Under the pieces are notes generated by a model. That model searched no databases, had not been told where the DNA came from, and worked only from the letters and a program-made list of their open reading frames with translations. 64,000 bases of DNA from an uncultured Candidatus Saccharibacteria bacterium (GTDB lineage: Bacteria > Patescibacteriota > CAZHWT01), in the NCBI GenBank assembly GCA_964554805.1, contig CAZKPX010000007.1, forward strand, positions 314 to 64,313, in the 5' to 3' direction. The position numbers and the translations under genes are program-made. Each line of letters begins with the position of its first letter. The first letter of the stretch is position 1. This document shows positions 20,427 to 61,159 of the stretch, piece after piece.

Positions 20427-21113
20427 TTGACACTCCTATACATATCTGTGTATGCTGGATTTAATATATATTCAGGAGTTTACTATCACATGGGATTAAA
20501 AGAGCAATTCAGTACTATTTTTGGTGGGAACAAAAACGAATTTGACGCCAACGGTAACAAAATAGTAGCCGGGTCGGATGCAAATGGTGAAAGCACTGTC
20601 AAGCGTGATAGTCAAGGCAATCCAATAGCTAGTGAGGGTCCAATTGATGCGGATGCTTACTTGGCTGATGCCAAAAAACCAACAGCAGACTTAACTGCAG
20701 AGCAAGTACAAGCTAGGCAGCAAGTGGTTCAAGATGCATCAGTCAACGGCAATTTAAATATCGATAAAAGGTCATACCAAGAGTCTGTAAATGCAAATTT
20801 TGAACAACCGAATAACATCGTTGAATTTCCCACGGTATCTGAGGCATTGCCGGCAAGTATTGTTGAGCCATCTCAGGAACCTACCCAAGTTCAGGTTGAG
20901 TCTAGTACCATCAATCCAAATATTGAGTTTGTAAATCATGCTCAGCCAGAACAAGATTTAACAGATAATGCACAAACGGCAACAGATACAAGCCCTGATC
21001 TGAAGTCAGTAGAAGAAGAATTAGCTGAAGGCGGCATCCAAGTTATTAGCGGGCAGAACTCTGATCAAGTGAAGCCTGTAAATAGTGAAAACCAATCAGA
21101 CGAAGCAGCTTAA
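20427..21113 (+). CDS. Hypothetical acidic low-complexity protein
   Basis: ORF with no recognisable domain; the start may be the internal Met at about 20490. A terminator follows. Confidence 0.3.
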   Translation: MTLLYISVYAGFNIYSGVYYHMGLKEQFSTIFGGNKNEFDANGNKIVAGSDANGESTVKRDSQGNPIASEGPIDADAYLADAKKPTADLTAEQVQARQQVVQDASVNGNLNIDKRSYQESVNANFEQPNNIVEFPTVSEALPASIVEPSQEPTQVQVESSTINPNIEFVNHAQPEQDLTDNAQTATDTSPDLKSVEEELAEGGIQVISGQNSDQVKPVNSENQSDEAA

Positions 21114-21142
21114 AAACTGACCACAGTGAAACAAACTAAAAA

Positions 21143-21170
21143 CCCGGCTATATGGCCGGGTTTTTAGTTT
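21143..21170. terminator. Bidirectional rho-independent terminator between convergent genes
   Basis: ACCCGGC-TATAT-GCCGGGT hairpin flanked by an A-run upstream and TTTTT downstream. It overlaps the last codons of the minus-strand gene. Confidence 0.6.
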
Positions 21171-22236: not shown

Positions 22237-22569
22237 CTCATTTAAGCCTCGGAATTGACACTATATGATATAATACATAGCATGAATCAAAAGAATTTGC
22301 TTCTACAAAGCCTAGAATATATATTCAATCAACCCAAGACCTACGAAATATTATTAGCCACCAGTCTCGTAGTCTTTATCATGACTATTTTATCGGCCCT
22401 CTATACTTTTAACCAACCACCCACCCCCGCTGTTTACTACAATATAAATAGTACTGGCCACCTCCAACCAGCCCAAACCATCCCCTCCACCGCCTGGTCC
22501 AACCAAGACAAAGCCGTCCTCGGCGAGCAAATCGAACGCTAGATGTACCTTTAATGGCATGTATAAAGC

Positions 22570-22598
22570 ATTGACAAAAAGCCTATAGCGTTATAGAA
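22570..22598 (+). promoter_or_regulatory. Sigma70-like promoter (TTGACA -17 bp- TAGAAT) upstream of the 22639 ORF
   Basis: TTGACA at 22570-22575, a 17-nt spacer, then TAGAAT at 22593-22598. Confidence 0.4.
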
Positions 22599-22638
22599 TG
22601 AAAAAGTACCGTTAGGTGATGCATAGAAAGGTCTTGCA

Positions 22639-22998
22639 GTGGGAGCTCAATTCCTGGTCCTAGGGTCCTTGCTATTCGGAGCACTGGTTGCTATGCTCAT
22701 CAACTTGGCTGCATTGTGGCTAATCTTCACCTACTTAACCCGGCCATTGCCGCGGCTGAGTAAGAAGTGGCTGCGACCGAAGATCGAGGAGATATACAAT
22801 CCGTACAGCATACAAGTCGGGCTGTTGGCACCTACTCTAACAGCCCTAGTAGGTATAATAGTCTCAGTATTGCTGGCTTTCGGGGTTGTGTCGCCTGCCT
22901 TCGCTGTATTTGTCTGGGCAGCTACATTTCTCTATCCGGGCTTAGCATTGCACGCATTCTGGCGCGACGGTTGCAATTTCCGCAGCCACTTTCTGTAG
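22639..22998 (+). CDS. Hypothetical small membrane protein
   Basis: 119-aa ORF with three to four TM helices, preceded by the promoter above. Confidence 0.3.
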   Translation: MGAQFLVLGSLLFGALVAMLINLAALWLIFTYLTRPLPRLSKKWLRPKIEEIYNPYSIQVGLLAPTLTALVGIIVSVLLAFGVVSPAFAVFVWAATFLYPGLALHAFWRDGCNFRSHFL

Positions 22999-23106
22999 AC
23001 TCTGTAACACAAACAAGGCTTTTCAATCCGTGAAGTCCACGGAGGAGTTTGAGTCAATCAAACTTTTCACCTGACTTAATCAGCCTCAAGTTGGTAGATT
23101 CAGGAA

Positions 23107-23145
23107 AATAAACGACCCAGCAATAGGTCGTTTATTTTTTCTAAT
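23107..23145 (+). terminator. Rho-independent terminator
   Basis: AAACGACC-CAGCAATA-GGTCGTTT hairpin followed by ATTTTTTCT. Confidence 0.55.
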
Positions 23146-23273
23146 CAACCTTGTGCATCACAAGTCTATAAGACGCCCAGGATACGGATATCTTGACAAA
23201 GAGACCTATAGTGTGATACATTGAATAATGTAATATACAAGAGTGATCGTTTTCTTAGGAGAGAGGCGCAATC

Positions 23274-23786
23274 ATGGGTAGGACTCCCTCGGTTACAAAA
23301 CCACACGGACAGGCAGGACAGGCAGTAGTGGCTCAGCTTCAGCTTCAGGTTCTGGCTATGTTGGAGCCGCTATTGATTGCTCCGGGCAGGCGAGTGCGTC
23401 TGCTTGACACCCAACTAACCGTTAGCCGGCTCGCCTTGCTCATGGCAGCCTATCAACACCATCTGGCGCCGCCTCAGTATTTCAAGCCCAGTCAGATCTG
23501 GCAGCACTTGATGACTGCTGAGCCGTTGGAAGTTGAGACAGGCAATCTGTCAGCCTCAGTCAGTGTCCCATCCTTACAGCAAGTCTACATTGATGCCGGT
23601 GTTTTACGGCAGAAAGGCTTGCTCGCCCTGATCGACGCTGATACGAAGGGGCCTACCTACTCCATCACCCAATTTGGCGCAGAAGTTATGACCAGCGCCC
23701 TAGTGAGAATCGCCAGGCCGCTGGTCGATCTGCTGTCTCAGATCTCGTCTAGCGATCTGGATCTGCCCACACAGCCCAAGTCGTAA
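23274..23786 (+). CDS. Hypothetical protein (possible winged-helix regulator) in a GC-rich patch
   Basis: 170-aa ORF with GC well above the surroundings. Weak wHTH-like segment LRQKGLLALIDADTKGPTYSITQFG. A terminator hairpin follows at 23801-23840. Confidence 0.3.
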   Translation: MGRTPSVTKPHGQAGQAVVAQLQLQVLAMLEPLLIAPGRRVRLLDTQLTVSRLALLMAAYQHHLAPPQYFKPSQIWQHLMTAEPLEVETGNLSASVSVPSLQQVYIDAGVLRQKGLLALIDADTKGPTYSITQFGAEVMTSALVRIARPLVDLLSQISSSDLDLPTQPKS

Positions 23787-28040: not shown

Positions 28041-28667
28041 ATGATCAGTGATTCAGTTAGAAATTTAACCATCGGCATGAACGATGCCATCAAAGCTTTT
28101 ATTGCCTCAGAAGTACTGCTGTGGTCAGCCTGGAACTTAGTTATCCCCATTGTATCAATCTTTGTCATCGAGAATATTCCCGGAGGCAGTATCCAGATTG
28201 CCGCCTATGCCTTCACCTCGTATCTTGTATCCAGGATGGTATTCGAACTCTATGTCAGCCGACGCATAAGTGGGCTCAGCACAGCGCAGAGAGCTATCAT
28301 TGACATTGCCGGCATGGCAGTCCTCAGCATTGCCTACCTAAGCTTAGCCTTCCAGCCAACCGTCATGATGCTATTTCTGTTCTATATTGCGGTCGGTTTT
28401 GGCTTCGGCATCTCATCCCCCGCCAAATTATCACTTTTTTCCAGCAACCTCGAGCGCAAAACCGAGGCTCGCGTCTGGGGAGTCTATGACGTATCCATTC
28501 TATCCGGCATGGCTGTCGCCACCAGTCTGGGTGGTATTATCGCTGCCGAATTTGGTTTTAAAACTCTCTTCCTCATCTCCGCCGCCGTCAACATCATCGG
28601 CGTCACTCCGTATCTGATCTATATTCGCAATTGGCGCAAAAAACATCACAGCCCTTCAATCAGCTAA
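28041..28667 (+). pseudogene. Probable truncated MFS-type transporter (C-terminal six-TM half only)
   Basis: 208-aa ORF with six TM helices resembling the second half of an MFS permease. It is preceded by 530 bp of repeat-rich non-coding DNA with no N-terminal half. Confidence 0.35.
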
Positions 28668-28914
28668 ATTTTATCTCAGATAAAATAGCCTGCATACCAA
28701 AACATATTTGTAGTAGTAGCTATTGTTTGCCAAAATTTGCATTCCGCTCATCAATCTGCTATAATACTTTCATATCAAGTCGCTCCAAAGGCGGCTATTT
28801 TTATACCTTTTTACAGTAACATTAATTCCATAAAAACTACTATAAGCTTGACTAAGCAAGCATTTGCTGCTATTATTCAATGCATCTTACTGGTACTTAC
28901 CTCGGAGGATATCC

Positions 28915-29475
28915 ATGGTTAGGCGGGTCAGTCAAGATTTTTTGCGAGAGCTTTCATCGCCACATGAGATGCCCCGCAACGTCGGGCAAGATCGCTTTGA
29001 GTTGATGCGAAAAACGAGACGACAAGGAGATCCATCACCGCGGCATGAACCGGCAGCAGCTAGGGCTCGACAAATCGGCATACATCTGCTTGGTGCTGTC
29101 GAGGCACCAAGCCCAGAGATATCCGATGAGTTCAACAAGATTCTCAAAGCGCGAGAGCAGCAGCGCCTAAAGAGCTTCCAGCCACCTCCGCTTCCCGAAG
29201 GTCTGCTGGTCGATATCGGAAGGGACACCTTCGATATCTTCGAAGGGCTGATTATCTGTGGCCACGAAGTGTATGCTTTAGAGCGGGACAGGGGCACCAT
29301 TCGTCGTATCTGGAACACATATGTTCTCTCAGATGGCGGCGATGAATTCCCCAACAATCTTGAGAGGGTACTTGCCGCCCAATCTCTGTACAGCGACTAC
29401 CTGTTTGACAGGGACAGCTATTTGGCTGACCGTGCAGACATTCAGATCGAAGCCGCCCACCCCAATTCGGGGTAG
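28915..29475 (+). CDS. Hypothetical protein in a GC-rich patch
   Basis: GGAGG RBS 7 nt upstream of the ATG at 28915; the terminator hairpin at 29440-29478 overlaps the stop; elevated GC; no recognisable domain. Confidence 0.4.
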   Translation: MVRRVSQDFLRELSSPHEMPRNVGQDRFELMRKTRRQGDPSPRHEPAAARARQIGIHLLGAVEAPSPEISDEFNKILKAREQQRLKSFQPPPLPEGLLVDIGRDTFDIFEGLIICGHEVYALERDRGTIRRIWNTYVLSDGGDEFPNNLERVLAAQSLYSDYLFDRDSYLADRADIQIEAAHPNSG

Positions 29476-29478
29476 GGC
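29440..29478 (+). terminator. Rho-independent terminator (imperfect hairpin plus T6)
   Basis: CCGCCCACCCC-AATTC-GGGGTAGGGCGG followed by TTTTTT. Confidence 0.45.
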
Positions 29479-29659
29479 GGTTTTTTGCATCTTGGAGGTT
29501 TGATTCCAAAATGTAAGCATCGATCCTCAACTCATCTGGTAATCGTGCATTGTAATAAAATAATCCATTCTAAATTAAACTAGCACGCTTGCCTGACATA
29601 TGCTAAGATAAAGTTATATAACGGCCAGGCATGGTCAGAGATTTCTGTTGAGATTTATT

Positions 29660-30469
29660 ATGAAATACCTTTATAGCTTAGTTTTTGTGATGCTCTTGTC
29701 GGTTGGGTTCTTGCATCTCTCTAGTCAATCCGCTCAGGCTGCGGTTTACGGCACTCCCAAATCAAGTTGTGAGTACAAAAAAGGCATGCTGACTGCATAT
29801 GTTGCCAACCTAACCGGTCGGACCACTATTACCAACAAGACCACCAACTGTACTTTTGAAGTTGGCTCCGCCTCATATCGAGCCTACCTGCCGTACTCCA
29901 ACGATCCCAAAAATAAAAACTGGATATATACTCAAACGTATGTCGATCATAAGACTTACACCCTTGGGCCAGGTAAGACTGTTACCCTCCAACCCAAGGT
30001 TGATACAACCTGTGCTTGGCAAGTAGATGCCTATGTTGGTCCAGTTATTAAGAGTTTTCCTAATCATGAGCAGACATATACTGGCCAAGGCACCTACCTG
30101 TCGGGCTGGTATGAAACAACCCTGCCCATGTGCAAAAAAGCCACCCCCACCCCCACTCCTACCCCCACCCCAACTCCATCCAAAGAACCAACCACCACCC
30201 CAACCCCCACACCCAGCCCCACCGTTTCGCCCACCCCTACCCCAGTAGTGCCAAGCCTAACCCCAACTCCATCACCAACTGTCCTTGGAACGACGCCTGT
30301 GCCATTAACTGAGCTGCCATCCACAGGACCAGGCGCAGCCGTAGTTATCACCATTCTTGGCTTAGCAGGCATACTAATAGCTAAGAAACACCATCTTTTC
30401 GACAATCTCGGCAAGAAAAAGAAGACGCCCGCTGAGCCAAAGCCTGAAAAGTATAACCATCACTCTTAA
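29660..30469 (+). CDS. LPXTG-motif cell-wall-anchored surface protein (sortase substrate) with Pro/Thr-rich stalk
   Basis: Signal peptide, then a (PT)n linker PTPTPTPTPTPTPSKEPTTTPTPTPSPT..., the LPSTG motif, a hydrophobic helix and the basic tail KKHH. Confidence 0.8.
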   Translation: MKYLYSLVFVMLLSVGFLHLSSQSAQAAVYGTPKSSCEYKKGMLTAYVANLTGRTTITNKTTNCTFEVGSASYRAYLPYSNDPKNKNWIYTQTYVDHKTYTLGPGKTVTLQPKVDTTCAWQVDAYVGPVIKSFPNHEQTYTGQGTYLSGWYETTLPMCKKATPTPTPTPTPTPSKEPTTTPTPTPSPTVSPTPTPVVPSLTPTPSPTVLGTTPVPLTELPSTGPGAAVVITILGLAGILIAKKHHLFDNLGKKKKTPAEPKPEKYNHHS

Positions 30470-43149: not shown

Positions 43150-43407
43150 TTACCCCGCCAGCCCGTCATCTATTTGACGAAGAGTGAACTTCATATTGGT
43201 CAAGTCCAAGAGCAGCTCAAAATATTGTCCAGCAGCCACACAGCAATACACAATACAGTCTCGCGCGTCTTGGACCATATTAAAAGTATGGTCTAGCCTG
43301 TCGACCTTATAGTTTTTATTGCGCCACTGTATATACAACGGCATAGCCGGCTGCTTGGCTTCCGATAGGAAATAGACTGATACCGGCTCGTCAATTGTTT
43401 GTCTCAT
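43150..43407 (-). CDS. Hypothetical protein co-oriented upstream of the Y-family polymerase
   Basis: GGAGG RBS 5 nt before the ATG at 43407. 85 aa, no recognised motif; it is not a LexA/UmuD-like S24 peptidase. Confidence 0.4.
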   Translation of the reverse strand: MRQTIDEPVSVYFLSEAKQPAMPLYIQWRNKNYKVDRLDHTFNMVQDARDCIVYCCVAAGQYFELLLDLTNMKFTLRQIDDGLAG

Positions 43408-43603
43408 ATTCCTCCTATGAATTAAAAACGTATAATTCAAACGGCAAAACTTCAACTTTAAGCTATGCAACTAATCACCAAAGCCTAAAATTCTGAGTTT
43501 AATTTTGACTGGTAAGTTTTAACGTTTGAGTTGTATATATAATACCCAAACAATACCCGAATATACAAGAGGCAAATTAACCGAGCTAGATTAAGAGATA
43601 AAA

Positions 43604-44893
43604 CTAGCGCAAGTCGTCTTCAGACTCAAAAAACAAAGGCGGCAAATCTGGTATGGAAGCGTGAGCCGCAGGAGGCGTTTCAGTAGACTCTTCGGCTGCC
43701 GGAGCAGGAGAAGGACTTGGCAGTTGAGTATCTAGCCGAGACTCAGAAGGAGCAAATGTAAGCTGTCGTCGCGGGGCAACCGCGTTGGTCGGACTAGGGC
43801 TGATTTTCTGTAACGGCTCGACAGTTTCTGCCGCTGACGATTCAGCAGAAGCCGACTCAGGCTTCATAGCAACTGCCGAGCCCTGCGCTAATCTTACATC
43901 CAGAGGTAGAGTAGAGGATTGAATTATAGGCAAGTCTTCGTTTGTGGCTTCTTCGGTTGCAACGGGCGAAGTTGGGAGTGACTCTCTTCGGATAGGGGCG
44001 AAAGTATACATGGAAGCCTGCGCAGGGCTAGGCGCAGCAACTGGTGCAGTCTGCGTTTTAGGCAGCAAGTCTCGTAGGTCATTGTCCATATTGGTCGGCG
44101 TTAATACCGGAGTATCTCCGACTTCCGGACCATGAACCCCAGCAGTCTCAACGGCTTCAACTTTCGGAAAGTGGGTGCCTGCATCTTCAACAGAGGCCTG
44201 GCCTCGGCGACTCTCTTGTCGAAGGTTGTAGTAGGCAAGCTCCTCGGGTAAGCCGTCTTGTTCAGCCACTGTTTTGGGCCCTTGATGTCGCTCTAAAACA
44301 GCGTAGAGGCGGAAAGATTGCCCATGTTTTTGTGGGTAATACAAATAATTACCTCTTTGATCAGGGTCCGATATTGAGATGCTTGGGTCGCTGATAGGCC
44401 ATTTTGGCAAGTAGGTTTGCATAACTTCGGCAGCCGGCATATCGTAATGTTGCCATTCATTAGTTAGCGTAATGGCGGTAAAGTAACCTTCCTCGTAACT
44501 GCTGGATAAAGGATAGTGACCATAGCCATCGTAGTAGGCTTCAAAGGCCTCTGTAATCAAGGCCAGATCCTGTCGTCGACGATCATCTCGATGACGAGCC
44601 CGTTTGATCATTATCAGATTGAAGCTGGCCAATGCTCCAGCAAAAAGTAACATGCCGCCCACTGAGACAAGTATCGGTAGCCAAGCCGTGCCCGACTCCC
44701 CACTTTGGGTATCTCCCGATGCCAGCAGCTCACCATTTGGCAAGCTCAAAACTGGGTTGTCCGGCGCAGCTGGATTGGCTTCTGATACCTGAGAAAAAAA
44801 CCATAAGCTATTAAGCAAAACCAAGATGATGAGCAAGCTGCTTGCTAGCCAAATAATGAGACGCCGATGTTGATCAATAAAGGTTCTAATCAT
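43604..44893 (-). CDS. Membrane-anchored pseudopilin-like protein, long paralogue (two TM helices) with Ser/Pro/Ala-rich C-terminal tail
   Basis: After the second TM helix comes RRRQDLALITEAFEAYYDGYGHYP, resembling the GspG/pseudopilin KxDLxxIxxALxMYxxDxGxYP block. Paralogous to 45540-46574, with shared WPISDPSI and YLYYP..GQSF.LYA motifs. Confidence 0.55.
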   Translation of the reverse strand: MIRTFIDQHRRLIIWLASSLLIILVLLNSLWFFSQVSEANPAAPDNPVLSLPNGELLASGDTQSGESGTAWLPILVSVGGMLLFAGALASFNLIMIKRARHRDDRRRQDLALITEAFEAYYDGYGHYPLSSSYEEGYFTAITLTNEWQHYDMPAAEVMQTYLPKWPISDPSISISDPDQRGNYLYYPQKHGQSFRLYAVLERHQGPKTVAEQDGLPEELAYYNLRQESRRGQASVEDAGTHFPKVEAVETAGVHGPEVGDTPVLTPTNMDNDLRDLLPKTQTAPVAAPSPAQASMYTFAPIRRESLPTSPVATEEATNEDLPIIQSSTLPLDVRLAQGSAVAMKPESASAESSAAETVEPLQKISPSPTNAVAPRRQLTFAPSESRLDTQLPSPSPAPAAEESTETPPAAHASIPDLPPLFFESEDDLR

Positions 44894-44898
44894 AAAGG

Positions 44899-45543
44899 TT
44901 AGTAGCAGGCCAATTCAAAGGTATAAATTGCATAGCCCCAGCCTGGCCTTGCTGGATCAACAAACTCTTTTAGTGGTTCGGCGTTGGCTGGCTGAGTATT
45001 GAGCTGACTCCCATCGTAGGGGGGCCGTTGGCAGTAGGCATCTGGCTGCGCCTGGCTATTAAGGCCGGTCCGAGGAGTGCACCAGTTAAAGACTTTGTAT
45101 CCAATGCCCCCCGAAAGATAAATGTAGCCTGATGATTTGCAGCTTGGCGATGCGCCTTGCAGGGGATCGAGTGGCAAGCTCGATAGATATTTTTGTTCCA
45201 CCAAGGCAGGAATCCAATTATCTTTTGTATAGGCTTGATTAGTTTCTGACTCCATCTCCGCCCCATCCCATCCGCAGTTATAGCAGCTATAATAGCCTGC
45301 GCCGCTCGCCACTGGTGGATATTGGCCATCGTGATCGTCAGCGTACTTTTGAAGAGCTTCTTTAAGAACTGTTAAATCAGCTTTGCGTTGAGCGTCTTGA
45401 TTTTCTAGGACAAGCTGGGCTGGGCGACTAGTGGTAAAAATTACGCTAAGTACTAAGCCAATTGCGCAAAATAGTAATAGCCATTCAGCCAAGCCCAGTC
45501 GGCCATAATTAAACGATTTCCATGTTGGAAAACCAGCTTTCAT
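44899..45543 (-). CDS. Membrane-anchored pseudopilin-like protein, short paralogue, Cys-rich
   Basis: Single TM then QRKADLTVLKEALQKYADDHDGQYPP. The C-terminal block YCQRPPYDGS...FVDPARPGWGYAIYT..LAC is shared with 46582-47304. No GFTLIE-type prepilin leader. Confidence 0.55.
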   Translation of the reverse strand: MKAGFPTWKSFNYGRLGLAEWLLLFCAIGLVLSVIFTTSRPAQLVLENQDAQRKADLTVLKEALQKYADDHDGQYPPVASGAGYYSCYNCGWDGAEMESETNQAYTKDNWIPALVEQKYLSSLPLDPLQGASPSCKSSGYIYLSGGIGYKVFNWCTPRTGLNSQAQPDAYCQRPPYDGSQLNTQPANAEPLKEFVDPARPGWGYAIYTFELACY

Positions 45544-46574
45544 TGCTGAGAGCCCTCGGGTAAAATATCGGTAACAGGTAGGTCCATATTCTCATGAATC
45601 GCTTGCTTGGTCGAAACTGCCTGACTTAAAACGCCAAATTGATCCTTGTTGGTACTAGGTACAGCTGGGCTAGGAGCACTCATGGTATCGGGTAGTGGAG
45701 GTTTGACATCAGCCACCACTTCGTCAGCCAAAAAGTTAATCTCAGCATTGATTTCGTGACTGTCGCTGGGGATAGTCTGCTCGACGATCATTTGCTGCAT
45801 AGCTGCGCTCTCGGATGCCATATTCTGTTGGGAGGGTAGGGCAATACTATGCGGTTGCGATGTTGAGTTTGAGTCTGAGCTAAGGCTAGAAATTTTATAA
45901 TTATATGAACCCCAAGCCCGAAGTAGGTTATCTAAGACATTGTAGTCAGTTTGTTCGCCTGGCTTCGGCAACTCCAAGTGAGCATATAGATCAAACGAGC
46001 GACCGGTGTTGCGTGGATAGTATAAATATTGATTAACCTGATTGGAGCCATGGTAGTCAATTGACGGATCGCTCAACGGCCAGTCTTTAATAATCGTTTT
46101 CATCTGGTCAGCATTCGGCAGTCCGTAGTAATTCCAATCCTTGGATAGATTAATACCCGTGTAATATTCCGGCTGATACGTTGATGACATGGGATAGTGG
46201 CCGTGAATAGATTTATAGGTCTCAAAACCTTGGCGAAGTTGCTCAAGATCGCGGCGTCGACGCTCATCCCTTTCAATCTTTTGATGCTTCATATGACCAA
46301 ACAAAGAAAAGCCAGTCAAAGCCAATAAGGCCAGGATAACTAACAGGCTAATACCAATCAGACCACCCAAATTAGTCCCAGATTCAAGCAGCTCAGATCC
46401 ATGTACCTCTACACCGCTAGCCAGAGGCGGCATGACAATACTACTACTATCCAAGACTGGCCGATAATTGGGTAGTATTATATAAAACAACACCAAAAAG
46501 ACCGTCGAAAAAGCAATAATCGCCAGCGAAATAGTTAAAATTAAATTGGTGTATCGCTCAAACAAATGGTTCAT
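45540..46574 (-). CDS. Membrane-anchored pseudopilin-like protein, long paralogue (two TM helices) with Ser-rich tail
   Basis: RRRRDLEQLRQGFETYKSIHGHYPMSS after TM2. ATGA overlap with the downstream gene. Confidence 0.55.
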   Translation of the reverse strand: MNHLFERYTNLILTISLAIIAFSTVFLVLFYIILPNYRPVLDSSSIVMPPLASGVEVHGSELLESGTNLGGLIGISLLVILALLALTGFSLFGHMKHQKIERDERRRRDLEQLRQGFETYKSIHGHYPMSSTYQPEYYTGINLSKDWNYYGLPNADQMKTIIKDWPLSDPSIDYHGSNQVNQYLYYPRNTGRSFDLYAHLELPKPGEQTDYNVLDNLLRAWGSYNYKISSLSSDSNSTSQPHSIALPSQQNMASESAAMQQMIVEQTIPSDSHEINAEINFLADEVVADVKPPLPDTMSAPSPAVPSTNKDQFGVLSQAVSTKQAIHENMDLPVTDILPEGSQQ

Positions 46575-46581
46575 ATAAAAC

Positions 46582-47304
46582 TTATAGGCAAGCTAAACCA
46601 GGGGTGTAAATTGCGTAGGCGTATTGGTATCGTGCGGGGTCAACATACGGCTTAAGCGCCACATCTCTGAATGGGTTGGCAGCTAGTTTGGAACTGTCGT
46701 AAGGTGGTCGCTTGCTGCAGTAATCACTCTTCGGCTTGGCCGTTCCTTGGTTTAGAGCGTATCCAGGTGGAGTGCACTGAGCGATAACTTTGTAGTCAGT
46801 GTTGTATGGTGGGGCAGGGGAGTAGTAGATATAACCAGCAAATGAATTATTGGCGCTAGGCTGGCAGACGGTGCCTCTAAGATTGGCAGGGTCTTGAGGC
46901 AAAGCGTCAATATAGCCATCCTTAACTAAGCCAGGAATCCAGTCATTGGCTCCCTTAGCCTCATATTCATCATAGGTGCAGTTTTCGCACCAATACTCCC
47001 CATTCGTTGAAGGATAAGTGCCTTGGTGAGCAGCTGAATATCGTTCAAGAGCTTGCTGTAAGTCAGTCAGTTGTTGCTGGCGCTCAAGATTCTCAGCCTG
47101 CACTTGCTTTTGGTGAGGATTTATAGCCAAGCTAACCAGAGCTGCTACCAAACATAGCCCAGCCAAAACTGCGCTAATTTTTGATAGCGTAATGCGGTCG
47201 AAGCTAGGAGAGGGGAGCTTTGTAGTTGCTGCAGTCTCCTGATCGGGGGCAGCTGCAGGAGCAGATTGCGTTGTATCTCGTGCTGTTGGGGCAAAATCAG
47301 CCAT
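46582..47304 (-). CDS. Membrane-anchored pseudopilin-like protein, short paralogue, Cys-rich
   Basis: Forty-residue cytoplasmic N-terminus, a TM helix, ERQQQLTDLQQALERYSAAHQGTYPS, and the shared C-terminal YCSKRPPYDSS...YVDPARYQYAYAIYTPGLACL. Confidence 0.55.
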   Translation of the reverse strand: MADFAPTARDTTQSAPAAAPDQETAATTKLPSPSFDRITLSKISAVLAGLCLVAALVSLAINPHQKQVQAENLERQQQLTDLQQALERYSAAHQGTYPSTNGEYWCENCTYDEYEAKGANDWIPGLVKDGYIDALPQDPANLRGTVCQPSANNSFAGYIYYSPAPPYNTDYKVIAQCTPPGYALNQGTAKPKSDYCSKRPPYDSSKLAANPFRDVALKPYVDPARYQYAYAIYTPGLACL

Positions 47305-50288: not shown

Positions 50289-50390
50289 ATATAAGGTAGT
50301 ATAGCAATCCTGGCTCAATCTGTGTGTTTTTGGAAAGTAGATCCGTACTTCTATACACAACAACCATCTCTTTTGTATAATGTAATATAT

Positions 50391-51494
50391 ATGACCAAAA
50401 CTGCCCGAATTTTGTACTGTCTCAGCTGCCTAGCGCTGGTTGCCGCCACTTTTGTAGCCCCTCAAATTATCTGGGCTGACAATCCCTCTAGCACCAACTA
50501 TGTTCTGGATAATTATGGCTTTGGCTCTGGCGGAACAGATGCCGATATGAACTCTGGATCTTTTAGATTGTACGGCATTGCCGGAGAGGACAATCTCCTG
50601 AACGCGTCCAGTACCAACTATACCTTTGGTGGTGGCCTTGTCTACAATATGCAGTCACCCATTCCTGATGTACCGAGTCTGGAAAATTTAGCTAATTATT
50701 ACGATCGCTTAAAAGCCACTCTCAATCCCACTTCCGATATTGACTCACATACCTACGCTATGGCCATCAGCAAAGATGACTTTGCTACGATTCACTATCT
50801 GACAGATCAGGGCACTCTCAAATCCAATCTCGAGCCCACCGATTTTCATACTTATGATCAGTGGGGTGGAGAAGATGGAATTTTAGTCAGCGGACTGGAA
50901 GCCAATCAAGACTACAAGCTCAAAGTAGCTGCTATTCAAGGAACCTATACCCAATCAGAGTTTAGCCAGGAAGCTCAAGCCCAAACTGATTTACCCACCC
51001 TAACCTTTAGTGTTGATGGCAATGCCAATATGGGTGTCTGGAATGAAGATAATAACTACAGCTCAACCGCCGTTTCCACACTTACCACCTCAACCAACGC
51101 CTATAACGGCTACAGTGTGTACGCTTTTGCTACCCAGCCTCTGACTCGCCAAAATGGCAACCAGACTATCGCCAATTACAGTGGCAGCTACAGCAGCCCC
51201 GGCTCATGGATGAGCGGACTCGGCTTTGGTTACACTACCAGTGATACATCGGTTGGGGGATCTCCAAAATGGAACTCTGCCACCTGTCCGGCTGATGACG
51301 GCCCTCCTCTTTGTTACGCAGCCTTTAATCAATCAGCACCCGGTGACGTAGTTGTTGATCATCTCGATCCACTCAACGATGGGCCGATTGAAGATCAAGA
51401 ATTTGAAGTAACCTATAAAGTGGTCACCCAATCCAGCCAGCCCGCCGGAACCTACAGCACCTCAATCATCTATACTATCGTGCCTATATATTAA
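50391..51494 (+). CDS. Secreted hypothetical protein (signal peptide, beta-rich)
   Basis: N-terminal signal peptide [29 protein letters not shown]; 367 aa; no recognised domain. Confidence 0.5.
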
Positions 51495-51579
51495 GATATG
51501 CCAGAGATGTTGAGTCTATTGCTTGCTTGCTTCTAAAGATGTAAACTAGACAGGTAAGCAATACCGTTACTTTAATGCC

Positions 51580-53634
51580 ATGCTGCCCAGAAAATGTATC
51601 TCTAGCCCAACTTTATTCAAAACTTCCTTCTCGGTAATTGCCGTAGCAGTCCTGGTTCTGGCTGGCTCTTTATTGGCCGCGCCAGATGCCCAAGCCGCTC
51701 CGGGCATTAATCAGACTATCAACTTTCAAGGGAAGCTAGCCAATCCCAATGGCACCAACTTAGCCAATGGCACCTATTCGGTTGTCTTTGCTCTCTACAC
51801 CGCCAGTTCCGGAGGTTCGCCCATTTGGACTGAAACCCAAAATGTCACCACCACTGCAGGCCTATTCAGAATTTCTTTAGGCTCAGTCGATACGTTATCG
51901 GGTGTCAATTTTAATCAAGATAGCCTTTATTTAGGCATGACCGTCGAGTCTGATAGTGAAATGTCACCCCGGCTTCAGTTCAGTGCCGTTCCATACGCCT
52001 TTAATGCCAAGCAAGTCAACGGCTTATCGGTCACCAACAATGGAGGCAACTCATTAAATATCGCCGCCAACAAAGGGTTAACTGTATCCAACACCCTGAC
52101 GCTTACCGGCGTTGACAGTAGTAGTATTAACTTTGGCTCTGGCGGCACTGTTTGTTACACTGATGCGAGCTGTGTGACAGCTGATTCGCTCGATTTCAGC
52201 CACTTGGCTGATTCAATGTCTTTGGATGTCTCGACCTCAATCAACCTCGGATCAAACAATCTCAGTCTTGCAGGCACCGGTCAAGTCAATTTTGCCCATA
52301 CCGGTCTAACAACATTTGCTGGAGACGTTTCGATTGGTACGCACACCGCCACCACCAAACTCGATGTCGACGGTTTGATTCGAGTTCGTAACCCTCAAGG
52401 TGAGACCGCTGCTCCGACCCGCACCAACAATGGCGAGTTTGCCTTTGCCAATGTCAGCTCTGAAGGGCGTCTCTACTTCCGCACCAACGGCGCTGATTAT
52501 TATATCAACAGCTCAGGCACCGGTGACTACTCAGAGTATTTCCTTAAGTCCGATCCGGCTGAGAAATTCCCTGTCGGCATGATCACCAGCCTAGAGGACG
52601 GTCGCCTCCGCAAAACGCAAGCCAATAGCCAGGTCTTAGGTGTTGTATCAGCTTTTGGTACCAGAGGCAATGATAGTCTGGATGGGGAGCGACACCAGGA
52701 CAAGAAGTACGCCAATGTCGGTCTGATGGGTCAATTACCCGTCTTGGTTAGCTCAGAGCAGGGAGCGATACCTGTCGGTCAGAAAATCGGTCATCCTCAG
52801 GCTATTGCCGGTGTAGGCGTTAAGTCTCAATCAGACCAATCCTGGCTGGCTATTGCTATGCAAGCCTTCAACCCCTCCGCTAGTTGTCCAACTGTTTCAT
52901 CAATAGCAGCCATTAATTGGCCCAAAGAAGTCAAAAACCATAATCCTGACAATGTATGTTTCACGCTGCCAAGCGGGACCGTTATTGGTCGAATTATGGC
53001 CTACATCTCGCCTTCAACAGCCAACGGTCAGGCCGCCACCACTCAGGCCCTGGTTACGGCCATGGGGCTCAATGCTGATAATACACAGCTAAGCACTAGT
53101 TTGGATCTGAGTGTCAATGGCACGCTTCGAGCCCAAGGAGGCCTTATCGTTGGTGGCCCAGCCGAATTCCAGGGCCCAGCCATCTTTAAGGCTATAGCTG
53201 AGTTTATTGACACGGTTATATTTAGAAACAATGTTACCTTTGAACGTGACGTGGCTATCGACGGCACGCTGTGGCTAAACAAAGACACTGCTGGCCTAGC
53301 TCGCATCAACCCAGGACAAAAGACCGTTCGAATCACCTTTGATGGTCAATATGAGGACCAACCGGTTGTTAGCACCAGTCTTAACGACACAACCGTAACC
53401 ACCGAAGCCTACCAAGCTTACATCACCTCTGGCTTATGTGATATTGCGAACGGACCAGCAGGTTGTCAAGACAAGCTCCGACAGGCACTGCTAAGCCAGG
53501 ATGTACGATTTATCATTGCTCATCAGGACAATACCGGCTTTACGGTGGAATTAGAAAAACCTACTCAACAGCAACTTACCTTCAGCTGGATAGCCTTGAT
53601 GGTCAAAGATAAAAAGACGGTTACTAACCCGTAG
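51580..53634 (+). CDS. Large secreted hypothetical protein (possible surface fibre/adhesin)
   Basis: Signal peptide, then INFQGKLANPNGTNLANGTYSVVFALYTASSGGSPIWTETQNVTTTAGLFRISLG, a motif pattern seen in many large surface or tail-fibre-like proteins. 684 aa, beta-rich. Confidence 0.5.
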   Translation: MLPRKCISSPTLFKTSFSVIAVAVLVLAGSLLAAPDAQAAPGINQTINFQGKLANPNGTNLANGTYSVVFALYTASSGGSPIWTETQNVTTTAGLFRISLGSVDTLSGVNFNQDSLYLGMTVESDSEMSPRLQFSAVPYAFNAKQVNGLSVTNNGGNSLNIAANKGLTVSNTLTLTGVDSSSINFGSGGTVCYTDASCVTADSLDFSHLADSMSLDVSTSINLGSNNLSLAGTGQVNFAHTGLTTFAGDVSIGTHTATTKLDVDGLIRVRNPQGETAAPTRTNNGEFAFANVSSEGRLYFRTNGADYYINSSGTGDYSEYFLKSDPAEKFPVGMITSLEDGRLRKTQANSQVLGVVSAFGTRGNDSLDGERHQDKKYANVGLMGQLPVLVSSEQGAIPVGQKIGHPQAIAGVGVKSQSDQSWLAIAMQAFNPSASCPTVSSIAAINWPKEVKNHNPDNVCFTLPSGTVIGRIMAYISPSTANGQAATTQALVTAMGLNADNTQLSTSLDLSVNGTLRAQGGLIVGGPAEFQGPAIFKAIAEFIDTVIFRNNVTFERDVAIDGTLWLNKDTAGLARINPGQKTVRITFDGQYEDQPVVSTSLNDTTVTTEAYQAYITSGLCDIANGPAGCQDKLRQALLSQDVRFIIAHQDNTGFTVELEKPTQQQLTFSWIALMVKDKKTVTNP

Positions 53635-53755
53635 AGTATTCTTAGATCGTTCTTATATCAATCAAGCATACTAAGCTTATAAATCCATGGTCTTGCATAG
53701 ACTATCTATTATCAGGTAACATATAAACTAATCAATTAAGGGAGCTATCTTCTAC

Positions 53756-54412
53756 ATGTTTACAACAAAAAATATTATTATTGCTGTTATGGTTGTGGTG
53801 CTATTAGGTTTGGGCGGAACAGCTGCTTACTTCTATATGCAGTATCAACAGAGTCAAGAAAAATTAAACAATCCGGAAAAGGTAGACAAAGAAGAAACGC
53901 AATCGTTGATCGACCGCATGTCCAAGCTAATCACGTTGCCTGAATCCAATCTTGATGAGGGCGAACCAACCTTAGCCACTGTCTTAGACAAAGAAAAACT
54001 CAAAGAGCAGGAATTCTTCGCCAGTGCTGAAAATGGCGACAAGATGCTTATCTATACCAAAGCACAGAAGGCATATCTTTACCGCCCTTCAACCGGCATT
54101 ATTATTAACGTGGCCCCCGTTAACCTAGGTGCTAACTTGCCTACCACGGTTCTACGTAACGGCACAACTTCTACGGCTGTTATCGACAATGCCAAGACAG
54201 AGCTAACCAGCTTGGCCAATATCACTACCAGCGAAAATGCTGCTCGTACCAATTACACGGCAACCATCGTCGTTGATGTAAATGGCAACAAAGCTGAGCA
54301 AGCCAAAGCTATTGCTGATCAGTTAGGCGTTGCCGTCACCAATACCCTCCCTTCTGGCGAATCCAAGCCTGAAGCTGATATTCTAGTCATCGTCGGTACC
54401 GATCAACAGTAA
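53756..54412 (+). CDS. LytR_C (cell-envelope-related transcriptional attenuator C-terminal) domain membrane protein
   Basis: N-terminal TM, then a C-terminal block ATIVVDVNGNKAEQAKAIADQLGVAV...ADILVIVGTD resembling the LytR_C domain. Confidence 0.55.
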   Translation: MFTTKNIIIAVMVVVLLGLGGTAAYFYMQYQQSQEKLNNPEKVDKEETQSLIDRMSKLITLPESNLDEGEPTLATVLDKEKLKEQEFFASAENGDKMLIYTKAQKAYLYRPSTGIIINVAPVNLGANLPTTVLRNGTTSTAVIDNAKTELTSLANITTSENAARTNYTATIVVDVNGNKAEQAKAIADQLGVAVTNTLPSGESKPEADILVIVGTDQQ

Positions 54413-54712: not shown

Positions 54713-55567
54713 ATGTTCACCGTTGTAGCCGCTATTGTTTTTATAGTCATCGTTATTATTCTCGTCTCCTTGTACGTAGTTCTTCATCGTCGCGAGCAAA
54801 AACTAGTCAAAGAGCTCAAAGATACCAAGCAAAAAGCTGCTGATGGCGGTTTCTTAGAAAATAGACTCCAAGAAATCCAATCCAGAGCGCTGCAGCAAGA
54901 GCAAAAAATCCTCGAAGATGCTCAGGTTCAAGCTAGTACTGTGGTTACCCAAGCCCAGCAACAAGCCAGCCAAGCAATCGCTGGAGCCCAGGCTCAAGCG
55001 GAGCAGGTGGTCAGTCAAGCGCAGACTCAAGTTCAGCAGTCATTGACCCAAGCTCAACAGCAAGCCACACAGTTAACAACCGCTGCCAGTCAGCAAGCGC
55101 AACAATTAGTTGAGCAAACCGCTACTACCCTCAAAACCATTGAGACCGAATTTCAGCAGAACGAAGAGCAGCAATTAGCGCCGGTTTATGATCAGGCGGC
55201 TCAAAGTGTTACCAATGTCACTAGTCAGCTTGAAGAAAAAACCCAGCAGCTGTTCGACAAGATGCAAACCGAGATGACCGCTCAGATCCAGACTCGCTAT
55301 CAAGAAATGGATAGCAAGATGGAAGGGGAGTGGGCTGCCGCGCGAGCCAACATTGAAGAATACAAAAAGCAGAAGCAAGCAGAAGCTGATCAGTGGAAGG
55401 CTGACTCGGAAAAGCGACTTGAGGACAATATTTTAGAACTACTGTCAGAAACTCTCAAAACCACCATCCATGTTACCCTTACTCCCAAAGAGCACCAAAA
55501 GCTAGTTTTTGATGCTCTGGAACAAGCCAAGGAGAATAATGCCTTTACAGCCGCAGATCCAAAGTGA
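54713..55567 (+). CDS. atpF: F-type ATP synthase subunit b-like (elongated, Gln/Ala-rich coiled coil)
   Basis: Single N-terminal TM helix, then a long predicted coiled coil with low-complexity QAQQQASQ repeats. Position immediately upstream of delta-alpha-gamma-beta-epsilon. At 284 aa it is far longer than typical b subunits. Confidence 0.55.
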   Translation: MFTVVAAIVFIVIVIILVSLYVVLHRREQKLVKELKDTKQKAADGGFLENRLQEIQSRALQQEQKILEDAQVQASTVVTQAQQQASQAIAGAQAQAEQVVSQAQTQVQQSLTQAQQQATQLTTAASQQAQQLVEQTATTLKTIETEFQQNEEQQLAPVYDQAAQSVTNVTSQLEEKTQQLFDKMQTEMTAQIQTRYQEMDSKMEGEWAAARANIEEYKKQKQAEADQWKADSEKRLEDNILELLSETLKTTIHVTLTPKEHQKLVFDALEQAKENNAFTAADPK

Positions 55568-55571: not shown

Positions 55572-56216
55572 ATGGCATTGATTGCCACCATCCCTACAGT
55601 CAAAGAGGCTGTTTTAACCAAGCAGGGCTTGCGTAGTTTGCGTGATGAAATTCTCTACCGCAATGCCAAGAATCCGCTTAAGGCCAATGACAACGAGCGG
55701 CTGCAGTCGCTTGGGCTAGGGCAGCTTGTCATGGACTGGTTGGTCTCCGAAGGCGGTCGGACTGCGTTTGATGATATTAAAAACTGCGGTCCGGACGCCA
55801 TTCTGCAGGCCTTTGACGCCGGTCTTAAACAGGTTGAATTGGTCCAGCTAACACTGGCCTATGTCGCTTCGGTCGATGATGCTGTACGGTACCATAAATG
55901 GTTTAATCAAGTCTTAAATCGCCCGGTTATGCTTGATTTGCGTCTCAACCCTCAGCTTTTGGCAGGCGTCATGTTTGTTTATCAAAATCATCTCTATGAT
56001 TACAGTCTGCGTCGCCAAATGCCCCAACTCCAACAAGCTCTATTAGAAAACTACAAACAATTCACGGCTAGCCAATCTACGCCTGCAACAAGCGACGAGT
56101 CACAAGCGACGAGTCAATTAACTCAAGATGTAGACAAAAATACAGAAGTCGGTACTAATACTCGTCGCCAGTCGCCAGTCGCCAGTACTCTTCATGACGG
56201 AGCAATTCCGTCATGA
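55572..56216 (+). CDS. atpH: F-type ATP synthase subunit delta (OSCP-like) with repeat-derived C-terminal extension
   Basis: Position between b and alpha; ATG 4 nt after the atpF stop; ATGA overlap with atpA. The C-terminus (...ATSDESQATSQ...RRQSPVAS...) is encoded by a GCGACGRG-type element. Confidence 0.6.
   Translation: MALIATIPTVKEAVLTKQGLRSLRDEILYRNAKNPLKANDNERLQSLGLGQLVMDWLVSEGGRTAFDDIKNCGPDAILQAFDAGLKQVELVQLTLAYVASVDDAVRYHKWFNQVLNRPVMLDLRLNPQLLAGVMFVYQNHLYDYSLRRQMPQLQQALLENYKQFTASQSTPATSDESQATSQLTQDVDKNTEVGTNTRRQSPVASTLHDGAIPS
56088..56188. repeat. GCGACGRG-type inverted-repeat element, copy A (in the atpH 3' coding region)
   Basis: Left end GCGACGAGTCACAAGCGACGAGTC (56092-56115); right end CTCGTCGCCAGTCGCCAGTCGCCAG (56161-56185), the reverse complement of GCGACGRG arrays. 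In frame. Confidence 0.6.
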
Positions 56217-57883
56217 AGAAGACGTACCAAGAGTACATTAACGAAGGTCACGAATCCGGCGCCATTATGTCTGCTCAGGGTTTTACAGCCATCGCTCAAG
56301 GCTTGCCTTCGATTGCAGTCAACGAACTGGTCCAAACCGAATCAGGTGCCCAAGCCATCGTCAACTCCCTGTATGAAGATACAGTTGAACTACTAATGAT
56401 CGACAGAGGCAGTGCCTCAAAAGGTGAGCCACTAGTAGCCATCAATCAGATTTTATCAGTACCATGCGGACCGTCATTAAAAGGTCGCATGATTAGCCCA
56501 TTAGGCGAACCATTGGACGGCAAAGAAGAGTTGACCGATGTCCAAATGATGCCCTTAGAGAATGAAGCCCCGCCAATTTATAAACGATCTAAGATTAGAG
56601 ACCAGCTTATTACCGGCATAATGCTATCAGACCTATTGGTTCCACTGGGACGCGGCCAACGTGAGGTTGTAATGGGAGACGCTAAGAGTGGTAAGACCAG
56701 TTTCTTACTGCCAATCCTGATGCATGCCAAAGAAGAAAATATGGTCGGTGTCTATGTTGGCATTGGTAAAACTCGCTCCGAATTGCGTCGTATCGCCACT
56801 CAATTAATCGACAACAATCCTGGCAGCGATATTGTGGTGGTGGGTACCTCATCATCTGATTCAGTCACCATGCAATACTTAGCTCCTTATGCCGGCATGA
56901 CTATGGCTGAATATTTCCGCGATCAGGGGCAGGACGTTTTCTTAGTTCTAGATGATCTGGGCAATCATGCCAAAGCTTACCGTGAAATCTCACTATTAAA
57001 TAATCGACTGCCTGGTCGAGACTCCTATCCTGGAGATATTTTCTATGCCCACTCTCGATTATTGGAGCGAGGTGGGTGCGTGGTCGGTCCTCAAGGTCAA
57101 CCAAACACCATCACCCTTATGCCAATCATCGAAACTATTGGCGGTGATGTGACTGGCTATGTCCAAACCAACCTCATTTCAATGTCGGATGGACACACCC
57201 TTTTTGATCTCGAAACCTTCTACAAAGGTATTCGCCCAGCTATCAATATTGGTTTGTCAGTCTCTCGTGTTGGTAAGCAGACTCAAACCAAGCTCCAAAA
57301 GTTCGTAGCTAGCGAATTGCGGGTCATGATAGCTCAGTATCAGGATGCCAAAAACTTCGTTCGTTTCGGTGCCGAACTAACTGACAAAACCAAACTGCTC
57401 TTCTTACGAGGCACCATTTTCGACGAACTGATCAAGCAGGACCTCAGCACTCATCTCAAGCGTCATGAGCAGTTACTGGTCATGTTGGCTCTCCTGGATG
57501 GCTTCTATGACCCATTTCCTCTCAAGGAAATACTGCAGGTCCGCAAAAAACTGCTGGAAATCTTTGCTCAGTCTCAATATGAGCAACTGCGCCAAGCCTT
57601 ATTAGACAGTGCTGATCCAGAAGTCCGTCAGCCTCTTTTGGATGCCATTTACAAGGAGGTCGCTCAGGCCTACGGGCTAAAAGATGGCACCGCTTCACCA
57701 GTAGCAGCCTCCACTCAAGCCCAGCTCGGCCGCGGCCAGGACGCCACTACGCCAGAACTAGAAGGTGGAACTAGTACTAGTGCCGACACCATGCAACCAC
57801 AATCACCTTCTAGTTCTAGTTCTAGTTCTAGTCCTAGTCCTAGTCCTAGTCCTAGTTCTAGTTCTGAAGGAGGTACTAAATAA
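56213..57883 (+). CDS. atpA: F-type ATP synthase subunit alpha with Ser/Pro-rich C-terminal extension
   Basis: P-loop GDAKSGKT, alpha-type core (PLGRGQREVVMGD, PGRDSYPGDIFYAHSRLLERG). An extra 50-aa or so low-complexity C-terminal tail is encoded partly by a hexanucleotide repeat. Confidence 0.85.
   Translation: MKKTYQEYINEGHESGAIMSAQGFTAIAQGLPSIAVNELVQTESGAQAIVNSLYEDTVELLMIDRGSASKGEPLVAINQILSVPCGPSLKGRMISPLGEPLDGKEELTDVQMMPLENEAPPIYKRSKIRDQLITGIMLSDLLVPLGRGQREVVMGDAKSGKTSFLLPILMHAKEENMVGVYVGIGKTRSELRRIATQLIDNNPGSDIVVVGTSSSDSVTMQYLAPYAGMTMAEYFRDQGQDVFLVLDDLGNHAKAYREISLLNNRLPGRDSYPGDIFYAHSRLLERGGCVVGPQGQPNTITLMPIIETIGGDVTGYVQTNLISMSDGHTLFDLETFYKGIRPAINIGLSVSRVGKQTQTKLQKFVASELRVMIAQYQDAKNFVRFGAELTDKTKLLFLRGTIFDELIKQDLSTHLKRHEQLLVMLALLDGFYDPFPLKEILQVRKKLLEIFAQSQYEQLRQALLDSADPEVRQPLLDAIYKEVAQAYGLKDGTASPVAASTQAQLGRGQDATTPELEGGTSTSADTMQPQSPSSSSSSSSPSPSPSPSSSSEGGTK
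57809..57862. repeat. Hexanucleotide microsatellite (YCTAGT)x9 inside the atpA C-terminal extension
   Basis: TCTAGT x4, CCTAGT x4, TCTAGT x1 read directly; encodes SSSSSSSSPSPSPSPSSSS. Confidence 0.9.

Positions 57884-58794: not shown

Positions 58795-61159
<2,365 letters not shown>

Follow-up and report, generated by a model that had tools for sequence, protein, structure and literature searches.

How does a bacterium come to encode, side by side, four pilin-like proteins without a prepilin leader, and what might such proteins do? The question is raised by a gene cluster at positions 43604–47304 on the minus strand of a 64,000-nucleotide stretch of contig CAZKPX010000007.1 (hereafter, the window), from an uncultured Candidatus Saccharibacteria bacterium. 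Type IV pili are the main known means by which Saccharibacteria find and hold host bacteria (PMC11623550, PMC9894109). The pilin repertoire of the group is highly diverged and mostly uncharacterised. The cluster alternates between genes of a short (S) and a long (L) type, both homologous to GspG-like type IV pilins. We give about even chances to a reading in which the locus consists of two tandem modules, each composed of a pilin and a pilin-derived membrane partner, whose pilins have become uncleavable and would now form S–L complexes in the membrane.

Organization of the four-gene locus

In the list of open reading frames (ORFs) the order along the minus strand is S2-L2-S1-L1. S2 (46582–47304; 240 amino acids) and its diverged paralogue S1 (44899–45543; 214 amino acids) are short, cysteine-rich proteins with one transmembrane (TM) helix, and L2 (45540–46574; 344 amino acids) and L1 (43604–44893; 429 amino acids) are long proteins with two; hydropathy and AlphaFold concur on these numbers. 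S2 and L2 lie 7 bp apart, L2 and S1 overlap by 4 bp (ATGA, read directly in the sequence), and S1 and L1 lie 5 bp apart. Coordinates, sizes, gaps and overlap are thus exactly as described in the initial annotation of this DNA, which had proposed four packed minus-strand ORFs of two alternating paralogue types. The division into two types is borne out by pairwise comparison, TM helix counts and cysteine counts. L1 and L2 share 46% identity across 92 residues (E 2e-26), and S1 and S2 share 37% across 218 (E 2e-34). The cross-type pairwise match of L2 with S2 is weak (E 3e-5); the S and L family profiles align with an hhalign probability of 96.6% (E 4.7e-10) over 129 columns running from the TM helix into the beta strands. 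S-type proteins contain 6–8 cysteines, and 12 of 14 L-type proteins contain none.

A motif following the last TM helix had been reported as the same block in every member. The block is real, but it is not identical in each protein: when the four sequences are aligned they agree throughout at R, L, Y, G, Y and P and nowhere else in the block, S2 has Q in place of D, L1 has I and YG in place of L and HG, and the S type has one additional residue ahead of G-x-Y-P compared with the L type. The type-specific C-terminal blocks quoted alongside it were found in the sequences. No tRNA or Rfam elements were found in the window, and promoter- and terminator-like sites were no commoner there than in shuffled sequence, so that they are uninformative on the operon boundaries.

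Homology to GspG-like type IV pilins

Scans of the four proteins against Pfam, NCBIfam, PHROGs and PADLOC returned no match above cut-off. The N_methyl family PF07963 matched none of the four, and the sole library lead was a sub-threshold match of S2 to the GspG model TIGR01710 (E 0.0011, 19 bits versus a cut-off of 88.85), a model that gave no match for S1, L1 or L2. Single-sequence searches of the PDB yielded nothing relevant. Relatives were sought among 5.8 billion clusters, where S2 has 12 matches and S1 has three; the more distant S2 relatives carry PF07963 or have been named prepilin or PulG by JGI. The profile of the S family matches solved pilin structures, namely geopilin 7tgg (2.5e-7), 9egp (3.7e-6) and GspG 5wda (1.1e-5), the last over approximately 100 residues that include an L-P-x-D-P loop.

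The L family comprises 12 word-index matches and about 24 clusters at 50% identity and E<1e-25. A profile of its second TM helix (TM2) and following domain was searched exhaustively against 1.84 billion representatives, and 6558 proteins were listed at E<=1e-3. Outside the L family, proteins of 140–210 residues account for many of the top matches (~1e-12), their alignments starting at the N-terminal helix and extending almost to the domain's end. All eight such matches that were fetched are canonical pilins with PF07963, and six of them also contain PF08334 (T2SSG). An example is P0048, with QSG↓FTLIEIIIV...RKSDLAQIQRGLELYYQDHGQYP...YVYYSTANGQTYYLYASLE (arrow, prepilin-peptidase site). The comparison pilins, which come from a metagenome-wide search, are taken to be of the candidate phyla radiation (CPR)/Patescibacteria kind. 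A hidden Markov model (HMM) built from these eight pilins only recovered L2 (82 bits), L1 (74 bits), S1 (46 bits) and S2 (44 bits), and no other frame of the window matched it.

The E-values of the S profile and the L-domain profile, together with the reciprocal pilin HMM, rule out a chance resemblance of motifs, and the resemblance to GspG and type IV pilins that had been suggested from the motif alone is true homology for both types. By these profile comparisons, the S proteins are Cys-rich homologues of GspG-type type IV pilins. Shared with the GspG-like pilins (PF07963 plus PF08334) are the hydrophobic alpha1 helix, the basic stretch R-D-x-x-R-(K/R)-x-D-L...Y...G-x-Y-P, and strands with Y-x-Y-Y...G-x-x-(F/Y)-x-L-Y-A-x-L-E. 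In contrast to those pilins, the window proteins all fall below the Pfam and NCBIfam cut-offs and have no Gly at -1, and the L proteins, which have neither leader nor cleavage site, are instead extended by a further TM helix, a loop and a long disordered tail. By descent, all four belong in the GspG-like type IV pilin superfamily while lacking the processing signal that defines it. They also resemble GspG of the type II secretion system (T2SS; PDB codes 5wda, 3fu1 and 1t92) in the helix with a small-sheet head and in the post-helix motif. They differ from it in having no prepilin signal, in scoring below the TIGR01710 equivalog cut-off and in lying outside any gsp operon, no T2SS or gsp genes having been found in the 64-kb window.

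The AlphaFold2 model of L2, calculated from a 12-sequence alignment, has a predicted local distance difference test (pLDDT) score of 80–95 across residues 70–230. It consists of a continuous 56-residue helix (69–124), two short helices and strands at 184–188, 193–198 and 226–229, followed by a disordered tail. Modelling had been put forward as a check for a pilin fold, and for the L-type domain it returns a long helix with a small beta-sheet at good confidence. The S2 model has the same outline, with a helix at residues 36–92 and then strands, at low confidence (pLDDT 52.6); this value was too poor for fold claims to be made from it, and these were dropped. The alpha1 helix of about 50 residues with a membrane-anchoring N-terminal half that characterizes pilins is found at 69–124 of L2 and, at low confidence, at 36–92 of S2, in agreement with hydropathy, and the globular alpha-beta head that follows is homologous to the heads of T2SSG/GspG-type pilins. 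Support for the fold is mainly from sequence profiles, and the structural evidence is consistent with it and modest.

All S-type proteins have six invariant or near-invariant cysteines, including a C-x-x-C (W-C-E-N-C-T in S2) just past G-x-Y-P, a pattern pointing to a head with either three disulfide bonds or a metal site.

Loss of the class III signal in the short proteins

Gly at -1 is essential for processing by prepilin peptidase, as known from Pseudomonas aeruginosa and other systems; for P. aeruginosa the requirement was reportedly established by Strom and Lory. None of the four window proteins has Gly(-1) together with a hydrophobic +1 residue and Glu(+5), a combination that relatives do have. 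Following leaders of 15–25 residues, the S relatives have sites such as ...SSG↓FVLAEILL, ...SQG↓FVLVEMLL and ...DDG↓FTIVELLV, with similar signals in the related loci L009 and L014 (three-digit numbers here designate related loci and genomes). When S2 is aligned with relatives having G↓FVLAE or G↓FTIVE, the corresponding position falls at residues 36–42 (47179–47199, minus strand) and reads D-R↓I-T-L-S-K, with Arg at -1, Lys at +5 and neither Gly nor Glu. It is preceded by a 36-residue leader rich in Ala, Pro, Ser and Thr. Other proteins of the S2 clade have Thr, Lys or Gln at -1. Leaders in the clade are 30–37 residues long, and each of its four proteins, S2 included, has Lys at +5. In the alignment the position in S1 lies at residues 13–20 (45484–45507, minus strand) and reads Y-G-R↓L-G-L-A-E: Arg occupies -1, the Gly is shifted to -2 and Glu(+5) is kept. 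The same GRLGLAEWL is found in two orthologues and is identical across all three, whose overall identity is 64–66%; the fourth protein of the S1 clade, from the sister genome L004, has the canonical MWRHNQG↓LVLAE with Gly(-1) and Glu(+5).

Mis-annotated starts hiding a signal can be ruled out. The stop-to-stop frames reach only 3–16 codons past the called starts and a class III motif was not found by regular expression over the six frames of the window, so re-annotation of the starts cannot create one. The initial observation that the window proteins lack a usable prepilin-peptidase site is upheld by both alignment and six-frame search. The further idea of the S type as a family without signals does not survive the comparison, since other Saccharibacteria relatives have G↓F(T/V)LxE and S1 of L004 keeps G↓LVLAE. 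By this comparison, the absence of the signal from the window's S proteins is a derived loss.

If the sites have been lost, the S genes could be functionless, decaying remnants of a pilus system that was lost or reduced. Gly(-1) is missing from both S copies and Glu(+5) from S2, and the family is as rare as the 12 and three matches imply. Against this, the ORFs are intact and of conserved length in all three genomes that have the four-gene arrangement, the overlapping, coupled gene arrangement is retained, and the altered N-termini are themselves conserved (Lys(+5) in four of four S2-clade proteins, GRLGLAEWL in three of four of the S1 clade). The conservation of the changed N-termini, together with the retention of invariant cysteines in the heads, argues against simple decay, which we regard as highly improbable. 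As judged from the conservation of every Cys and head motif, selection on the S genes is maintained.

Architecture of the long proteins

L2 begins with a first TM helix (TM1, residues ~8–37), continues through a loop into TM2 (~65–96), which runs on as the long helix, and ends its globular domain at ~232. The pilin-like module, TM2/alpha1 helix plus GspG-type head, thus corresponds to residues 66–232 (45879–46379, minus strand), and that of L1 to residues ~66–230 (44204–44698, minus strand). The disordered tail of L2 ends in ...ILPEGSQQ, and the tail of L1, rich in Ala, Pro, Ser and Thr, ends in ...DLPPLFFESEDDLR. The full-length L sequences that were read share a common layout: a short basic N-tail, TM1, a loop of 20–30 residues, TM2 leading into a conserved domain of ~135 residues, and a disordered tail whose length ranges from almost nothing, in the shortest and most distant members, to ~260 residues. 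An exception is P0038 (243 amino acids), with a single TM helix, which may be a truncated gene call. The domain is marked by W-P-x-S-D-P and by Y-L-Y-Y-P...G-x-x-F-x-L-Y-A-H-L-E, and a conserved Gly/Glu site ahead of TM2 was not found in L members.

L1 and L2 each have the full set of features that define the type, namely the basic N-tail, TM1, a Lys/Arg-poor loop, TM2 with pilin helix and head, the disordered tail and a pilin gene upstream. No description of a two-TM, pilin-derived family was found in Pfam, NCBIfam or the literature searched, and JGI labels one L member 'PulG'.

The extreme ends of the tails are conserved within clades, as ...(D/E)(L/I)P(V/L)xxILPE(G/D) in the L2 clade and ...(D/M)(L/A)PPLF... 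in the L1 clade and P0018. In the L-family alignment these tail ends fall at 43607–43650 in L1 and 45543–45590 in L2, and they look like short linear binding motifs.

A recurrent pair of a pilin gene and an L gene

In all 15 cases with visible upstream sequence, the gene immediately before an L gene encodes a pilin and lies on the same strand, at a spacing of 0–13 bp, across at least 10 contigs; one further pairing, on a 988-bp contig, is unclear. Most of the upstream pilins whose N-terminus is visible retain a normal signal. The pairing extends to distant L clades, in which the upstream gene encodes a pilin with RRQSG↓FTYIELL (L014) or the C-terminal fragment of an S-type protein (L015). The S-L-S-L tetrad, with a divergent DUF3048 gene upstream and a DinB gene downstream, is kept in two further metagenomic contigs, so that the homologous tetrads sought on the basis of the initial annotation do exist. 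A single S+L pair is found in the relatives L002, L008 and L009. In L010 and L011 the pair is followed by a different, canonical pilin, and in L011 then by a second, distant L-type gene.

In simple neighbour-joining trees, which carry no support values, the S and L families are congruent. The wider L tree has several deep clades; L1 and L2 lie in different ones, with 37% identity in the domain, which rules out a recent tandem duplicate. The picture of four genes arising by simple duplication thus gives way to one in which the recurring unit is a pilin gene followed by an L-type gene. By tree position and identity, the tetrad is two old modules in tandem and not a fresh duplication.

As judged from the contigs matched, the two-gene module has been found so far in Saccharibacteria-type contigs. 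Among GTDB representative genomes there is one match only, an uncultured Candidatus Saccharibacteria metagenome-assembled genome (49% identity), whose contig has DUF3048, G6PD, S, L, DUF2103 and DUF2207 in common with the neighbourhood in the window. Contig scans gave this one GTDB locus and one short metagenome locus; the family is small and so far known only from metagenomes, in which the contigs are short. The only NCBI proteins among the family matches are the window's own, a hint that cultivated strains may lack the S/L family.

Two further pilin-like genes occur near the module in relatives. One is the second pilin type of L010 (1900–2421, plus strand), L011 (1825–2415, plus strand) and L013 (156–653, plus strand), a protein of ~196 amino acids with a distinct C-terminus (...YGEFE...) and, in L010 and L011, a signal after a leader of ~29 residues (...SHG↓FTIIELL and ...SLG↓FTLIELL). 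It follows the first S–L pair in L010 and L011 and precedes the distant L-type gene in L011 and L013. The other is a pilin-like gene on the opposite strand, right past the S–L module and adjoining DUF2103, in L009 (11937–12545, minus strand), L011 (3552–4187, minus strand) and L002 (3140–3736, minus strand). It encodes a protein of ~200 amino acids, which in L009 and L011 has an N_methyl signal after a very short leader; the L009 copy also has a weak PsbP_2-like match, and the L002 gene has no Pfam match on record. At that position in the window no counterpart of this gene is present.

Searches for machinery, the results of which cover the 64-kb window only, found none of pilB, pilC, pilD, pilM, pilN, pilO and pilT, so the linked pilB, pilC and prepilin-peptidase genes whose presence had been raised are not there. 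The gene content of the window is housekeeping, including an F-type ATPase, DinB, an AddA-like helicase, LiaF and two-component systems.

These findings bear on the possibility that S1 and S2 still function as minor pilins in the type IV pilus of Saccharibacteria, processed non-canonically or left uncleaved at a priming or tip stage, with the L proteins as accessory assembly or priming factors. The family is ancestrally prepilin, S1 of L004 is canonical, and S1 of the window keeps Glu(+5) and a nearby Gly at -2, after which cleavage might occur. Other canonical pilins adjoin the module in relatives. Type IV pili are also nearly universal in Saccharibacteria, and in TM7x the pilins PilX1 and PilX2 are functional despite having no predicted PilD signal (PMC11623550). 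The long leaders of the S2 clade, the absence of Gly and Glu from S2 with Lys in the +5 position, and the lack of any pil machinery gene within 64 kb speak against such a role, and a two-TM L protein would be unable to enter a filament itself. On balance we find this explanation rather doubtful.

Topology of the long proteins

The distribution of charges is consistent along the L proteins. The N-tail always has 1–3 Lys/Arg across the family, the loop has 0–3, and the 25 residues past TM2 have 5–10; of ten members inspected by eye, nine have no Lys/Arg in the 15 residues ahead of TM2 and the tenth has a single Arg. Under the positive-inside rule this pattern predicts an N-in/loop-out/C-in arrangement with head and tail in the cytoplasm. 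Charge counts are not decisive for the topology by themselves, as a basic post-helix stretch is also found in canonical exported pilins, and we consider a C-in domain somewhat more likely than a C-out one. The cytoplasmic N-terminal extensions mentioned in the initial annotation were an assumption and not an observation.

All four proteins had been proposed to display their pilin heads outside, forming a new surface or filament-base structure independent of prepilin peptidase. The pilin homology of the four, their want of a class III signal, the tight operon and the conservation of the tetrad in three genomes are in keeping with this proposal. It needs the basic N-tails to be translocated and the acidic, Lys/Arg-poor loop to be cytoplasmic, contrary to the positive-inside rule in every member examined. 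Two points further weaken the intuition of an external head: the L proteins are Cys-free, and their tails rich in Ala, Pro, Ser and Thr are no marker of an external location, since the cytoplasmic F1 alpha and beta subunits encoded in the window have similar extensions. No filament-forming feature was found, and nothing demonstrates a novel filament-base system; pilB, pilC and pilD are absent from the window. A surface location for the L type is unproven, the charges predicting a cytoplasmic pilin-like domain, and we judge the proposal as a whole to be quite unlikely.

A possible reading, which we put forward tentatively, is that the L proteins are topology-inverted pilins, in which an N-terminal signal-anchor makes the old pilin helix cross from outside to inside and so leaves the Cys-free head and the tail in the cytoplasm. 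Only the conserved 20–30-residue loop would then point outward, facing the exported pilin encoded upstream, and L might act as a trans-membrane partner or regulator of that specific pilin. Against inversion stand the extracellular ancestry of the L domain and the R-D-x-x-R-K-x-D-L stretch, equally basic in canonical exported pilins. No arrangement with a pilin fold on the cytoplasmic face was found in the literature searched, and we know of no pilin fold that has been recruited there.

A model for the S–L module

In the model of a pilin with a pilin-derived membrane partner, the S heads would be exported and probably disulfide-bonded, most of the relatives being ordinary prepilins. S1 and S2 would not be cleaved by prepilin peptidase and would stay anchored in the membrane through the alpha1 helix, with their Cys-rich heads outside. 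In the L proteins, which retain the alpha1 helix and head domain, the extra N-terminal TM helix and the 20–30-residue loop take the place of the pilin leader and cleavage site, and at the C-terminus a long disordered tail has been added that closes with a short conserved motif. Never released into a filament, L proteins would be permanent membrane proteins, each the dedicated partner, at about 1:1, of the pilin encoded directly upstream. L may hold or dock this pilin by helix–helix contacts in the bilayer and through the conserved loop. The outcome in this lineage would be a permanent, membrane-embedded S–L complex in place of a pilus subunit. The analysis shows the homology, the architecture, the absence of the signal, the strict gene pairing and the congruence of the two trees; non-cleavage, physical interaction and function are predicted from them.

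Several points weigh against this model. The S–L contact is itself a prediction. The canonical S1 of L004 means that the module is not intrinsically signal-less. The rule on Gly(-1) is carried over by analogy from other bacteria, and S1 has a Gly at -2. Should the L domain be cytoplasmic, head-to-head pairing with S would be impossible, leaving only contacts through the TM helices and loop. The predicted S2 structure is poor, and Foldseek searches of the PDB gave no significant match for the S2 or L2 model, several type IV pilins being among the weak top matches of L2.

Lys(+5) is confined to the S2 clade, and every genome in which it occurs has also retained Glu(+5) in its S1. From this pattern, which amounts to a single evolutionary event, we speculate that the two residues could form a charge pair between the two uncleaved helices.

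Relation to known systems

Orphan pilins and pilins without predicted PilD signals are already known in Saccharibacteria, including PilX1 and PilX2 of TM7x (PMC11623550). Pilin-like genes of this group resemble those described here in being sited away from the machinery loci, and some are T2SS-pseudopilin-like or have non-canonical signals. As far as published descriptions allow comparison, PilX1 and PilX2 differ in having large C-terminal adhesin domains and no second TM helix.

The closest functional precedent, by analogy, is archaeal FlaF/FlaG (ArlF/ArlG). FlaF is a membrane-anchored component with an incomplete archaellin domain and no class III signal, and both are pilin- or archaellin-derived, signal-less and anchored by an N-terminal helix at the base of a machine (PMC4425475). 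There is no detectable sequence relationship to them, and FlaF differs in its beta-sandwich, its one TM helix and its place inside the archaellum operon. The CPR Pam pili, in the part of the source available, are described as Ig-like and assembled by donor-strand exchange with chaperone/usher-like partners (bioRxiv 10.64898/2026.03.03.709456). On that description a link to them was ruled out, the fold predicted here being a long helix with a small sheet and not Ig-like.

The locus defines a conserved partner family outside Pfam and NCBIfam, pilin-derived two-TM proteins encoded behind a pilin gene in every visible case, and offers a natural case of a pilin that has no processing site and is under selection. 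It opens the questions of what role pilin-like proteins barred from the filament may have and of whether the pilin fold is able to operate at the cytoplasmic face of the membrane. A cytoplasmic orientation of the L domain, if true, would make the finding substantially more interesting. For annotation, the family offers a signature by which genes now called 'hypothetical' or, misleadingly, 'PulG' can be recognised.

Other features of the window

A small ORF (43150–43470, minus strand; 106 amino acids from a TTG start) lies between L1 and the DinB gene. Its position is kept in all three tetrad genomes, and its counterpart is called at 83–85 amino acids in L001, L004 and L007. It has no Pfam, PHROGs or PADLOC match and no TM segment.

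F-type ATPase subunits encoded at 58798–61092, 56213–57883 and 54713–55567 (all plus strand) carry long low-complexity extensions rich in Ala, Pro, Ser, Thr and Gln, which are unusual for cytoplasmic F1 subunits. The segments span residues 4–80 and 514–739 of F1 beta (764 amino acids), 488–556 of F1 alpha (556 amino acids) and 53–167 of a 284-amino-acid ORF that lies upstream of the delta-like one. The two ends of F1 beta share an almost identical peptide, ...ATSDE(Q/P)QATAPQPA...IADSTS(R/H)(P/Q)SPVASRSEA....

At 28041–30469 (plus strand), a 208-amino-acid ORF matches only the first half of MFS_1 (profile positions 6–172 of 347) and is followed by two ORFs without family matches (203 and 273 amino acids), the longer of which has a stretch rich in Ala, Pro, Ser and Thr; the region may be a split or decayed transporter gene. 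ORFs of 166, 228, 362, 170, 390 and 218 amino acids without a Pfam family occupy 19767–23786 and 50322–54412, along with one of 684 amino acids that has only a sub-threshold match to Peptidase_G2. The block of 390, 684 and 218 amino acids is syntenic with L001 and L004.

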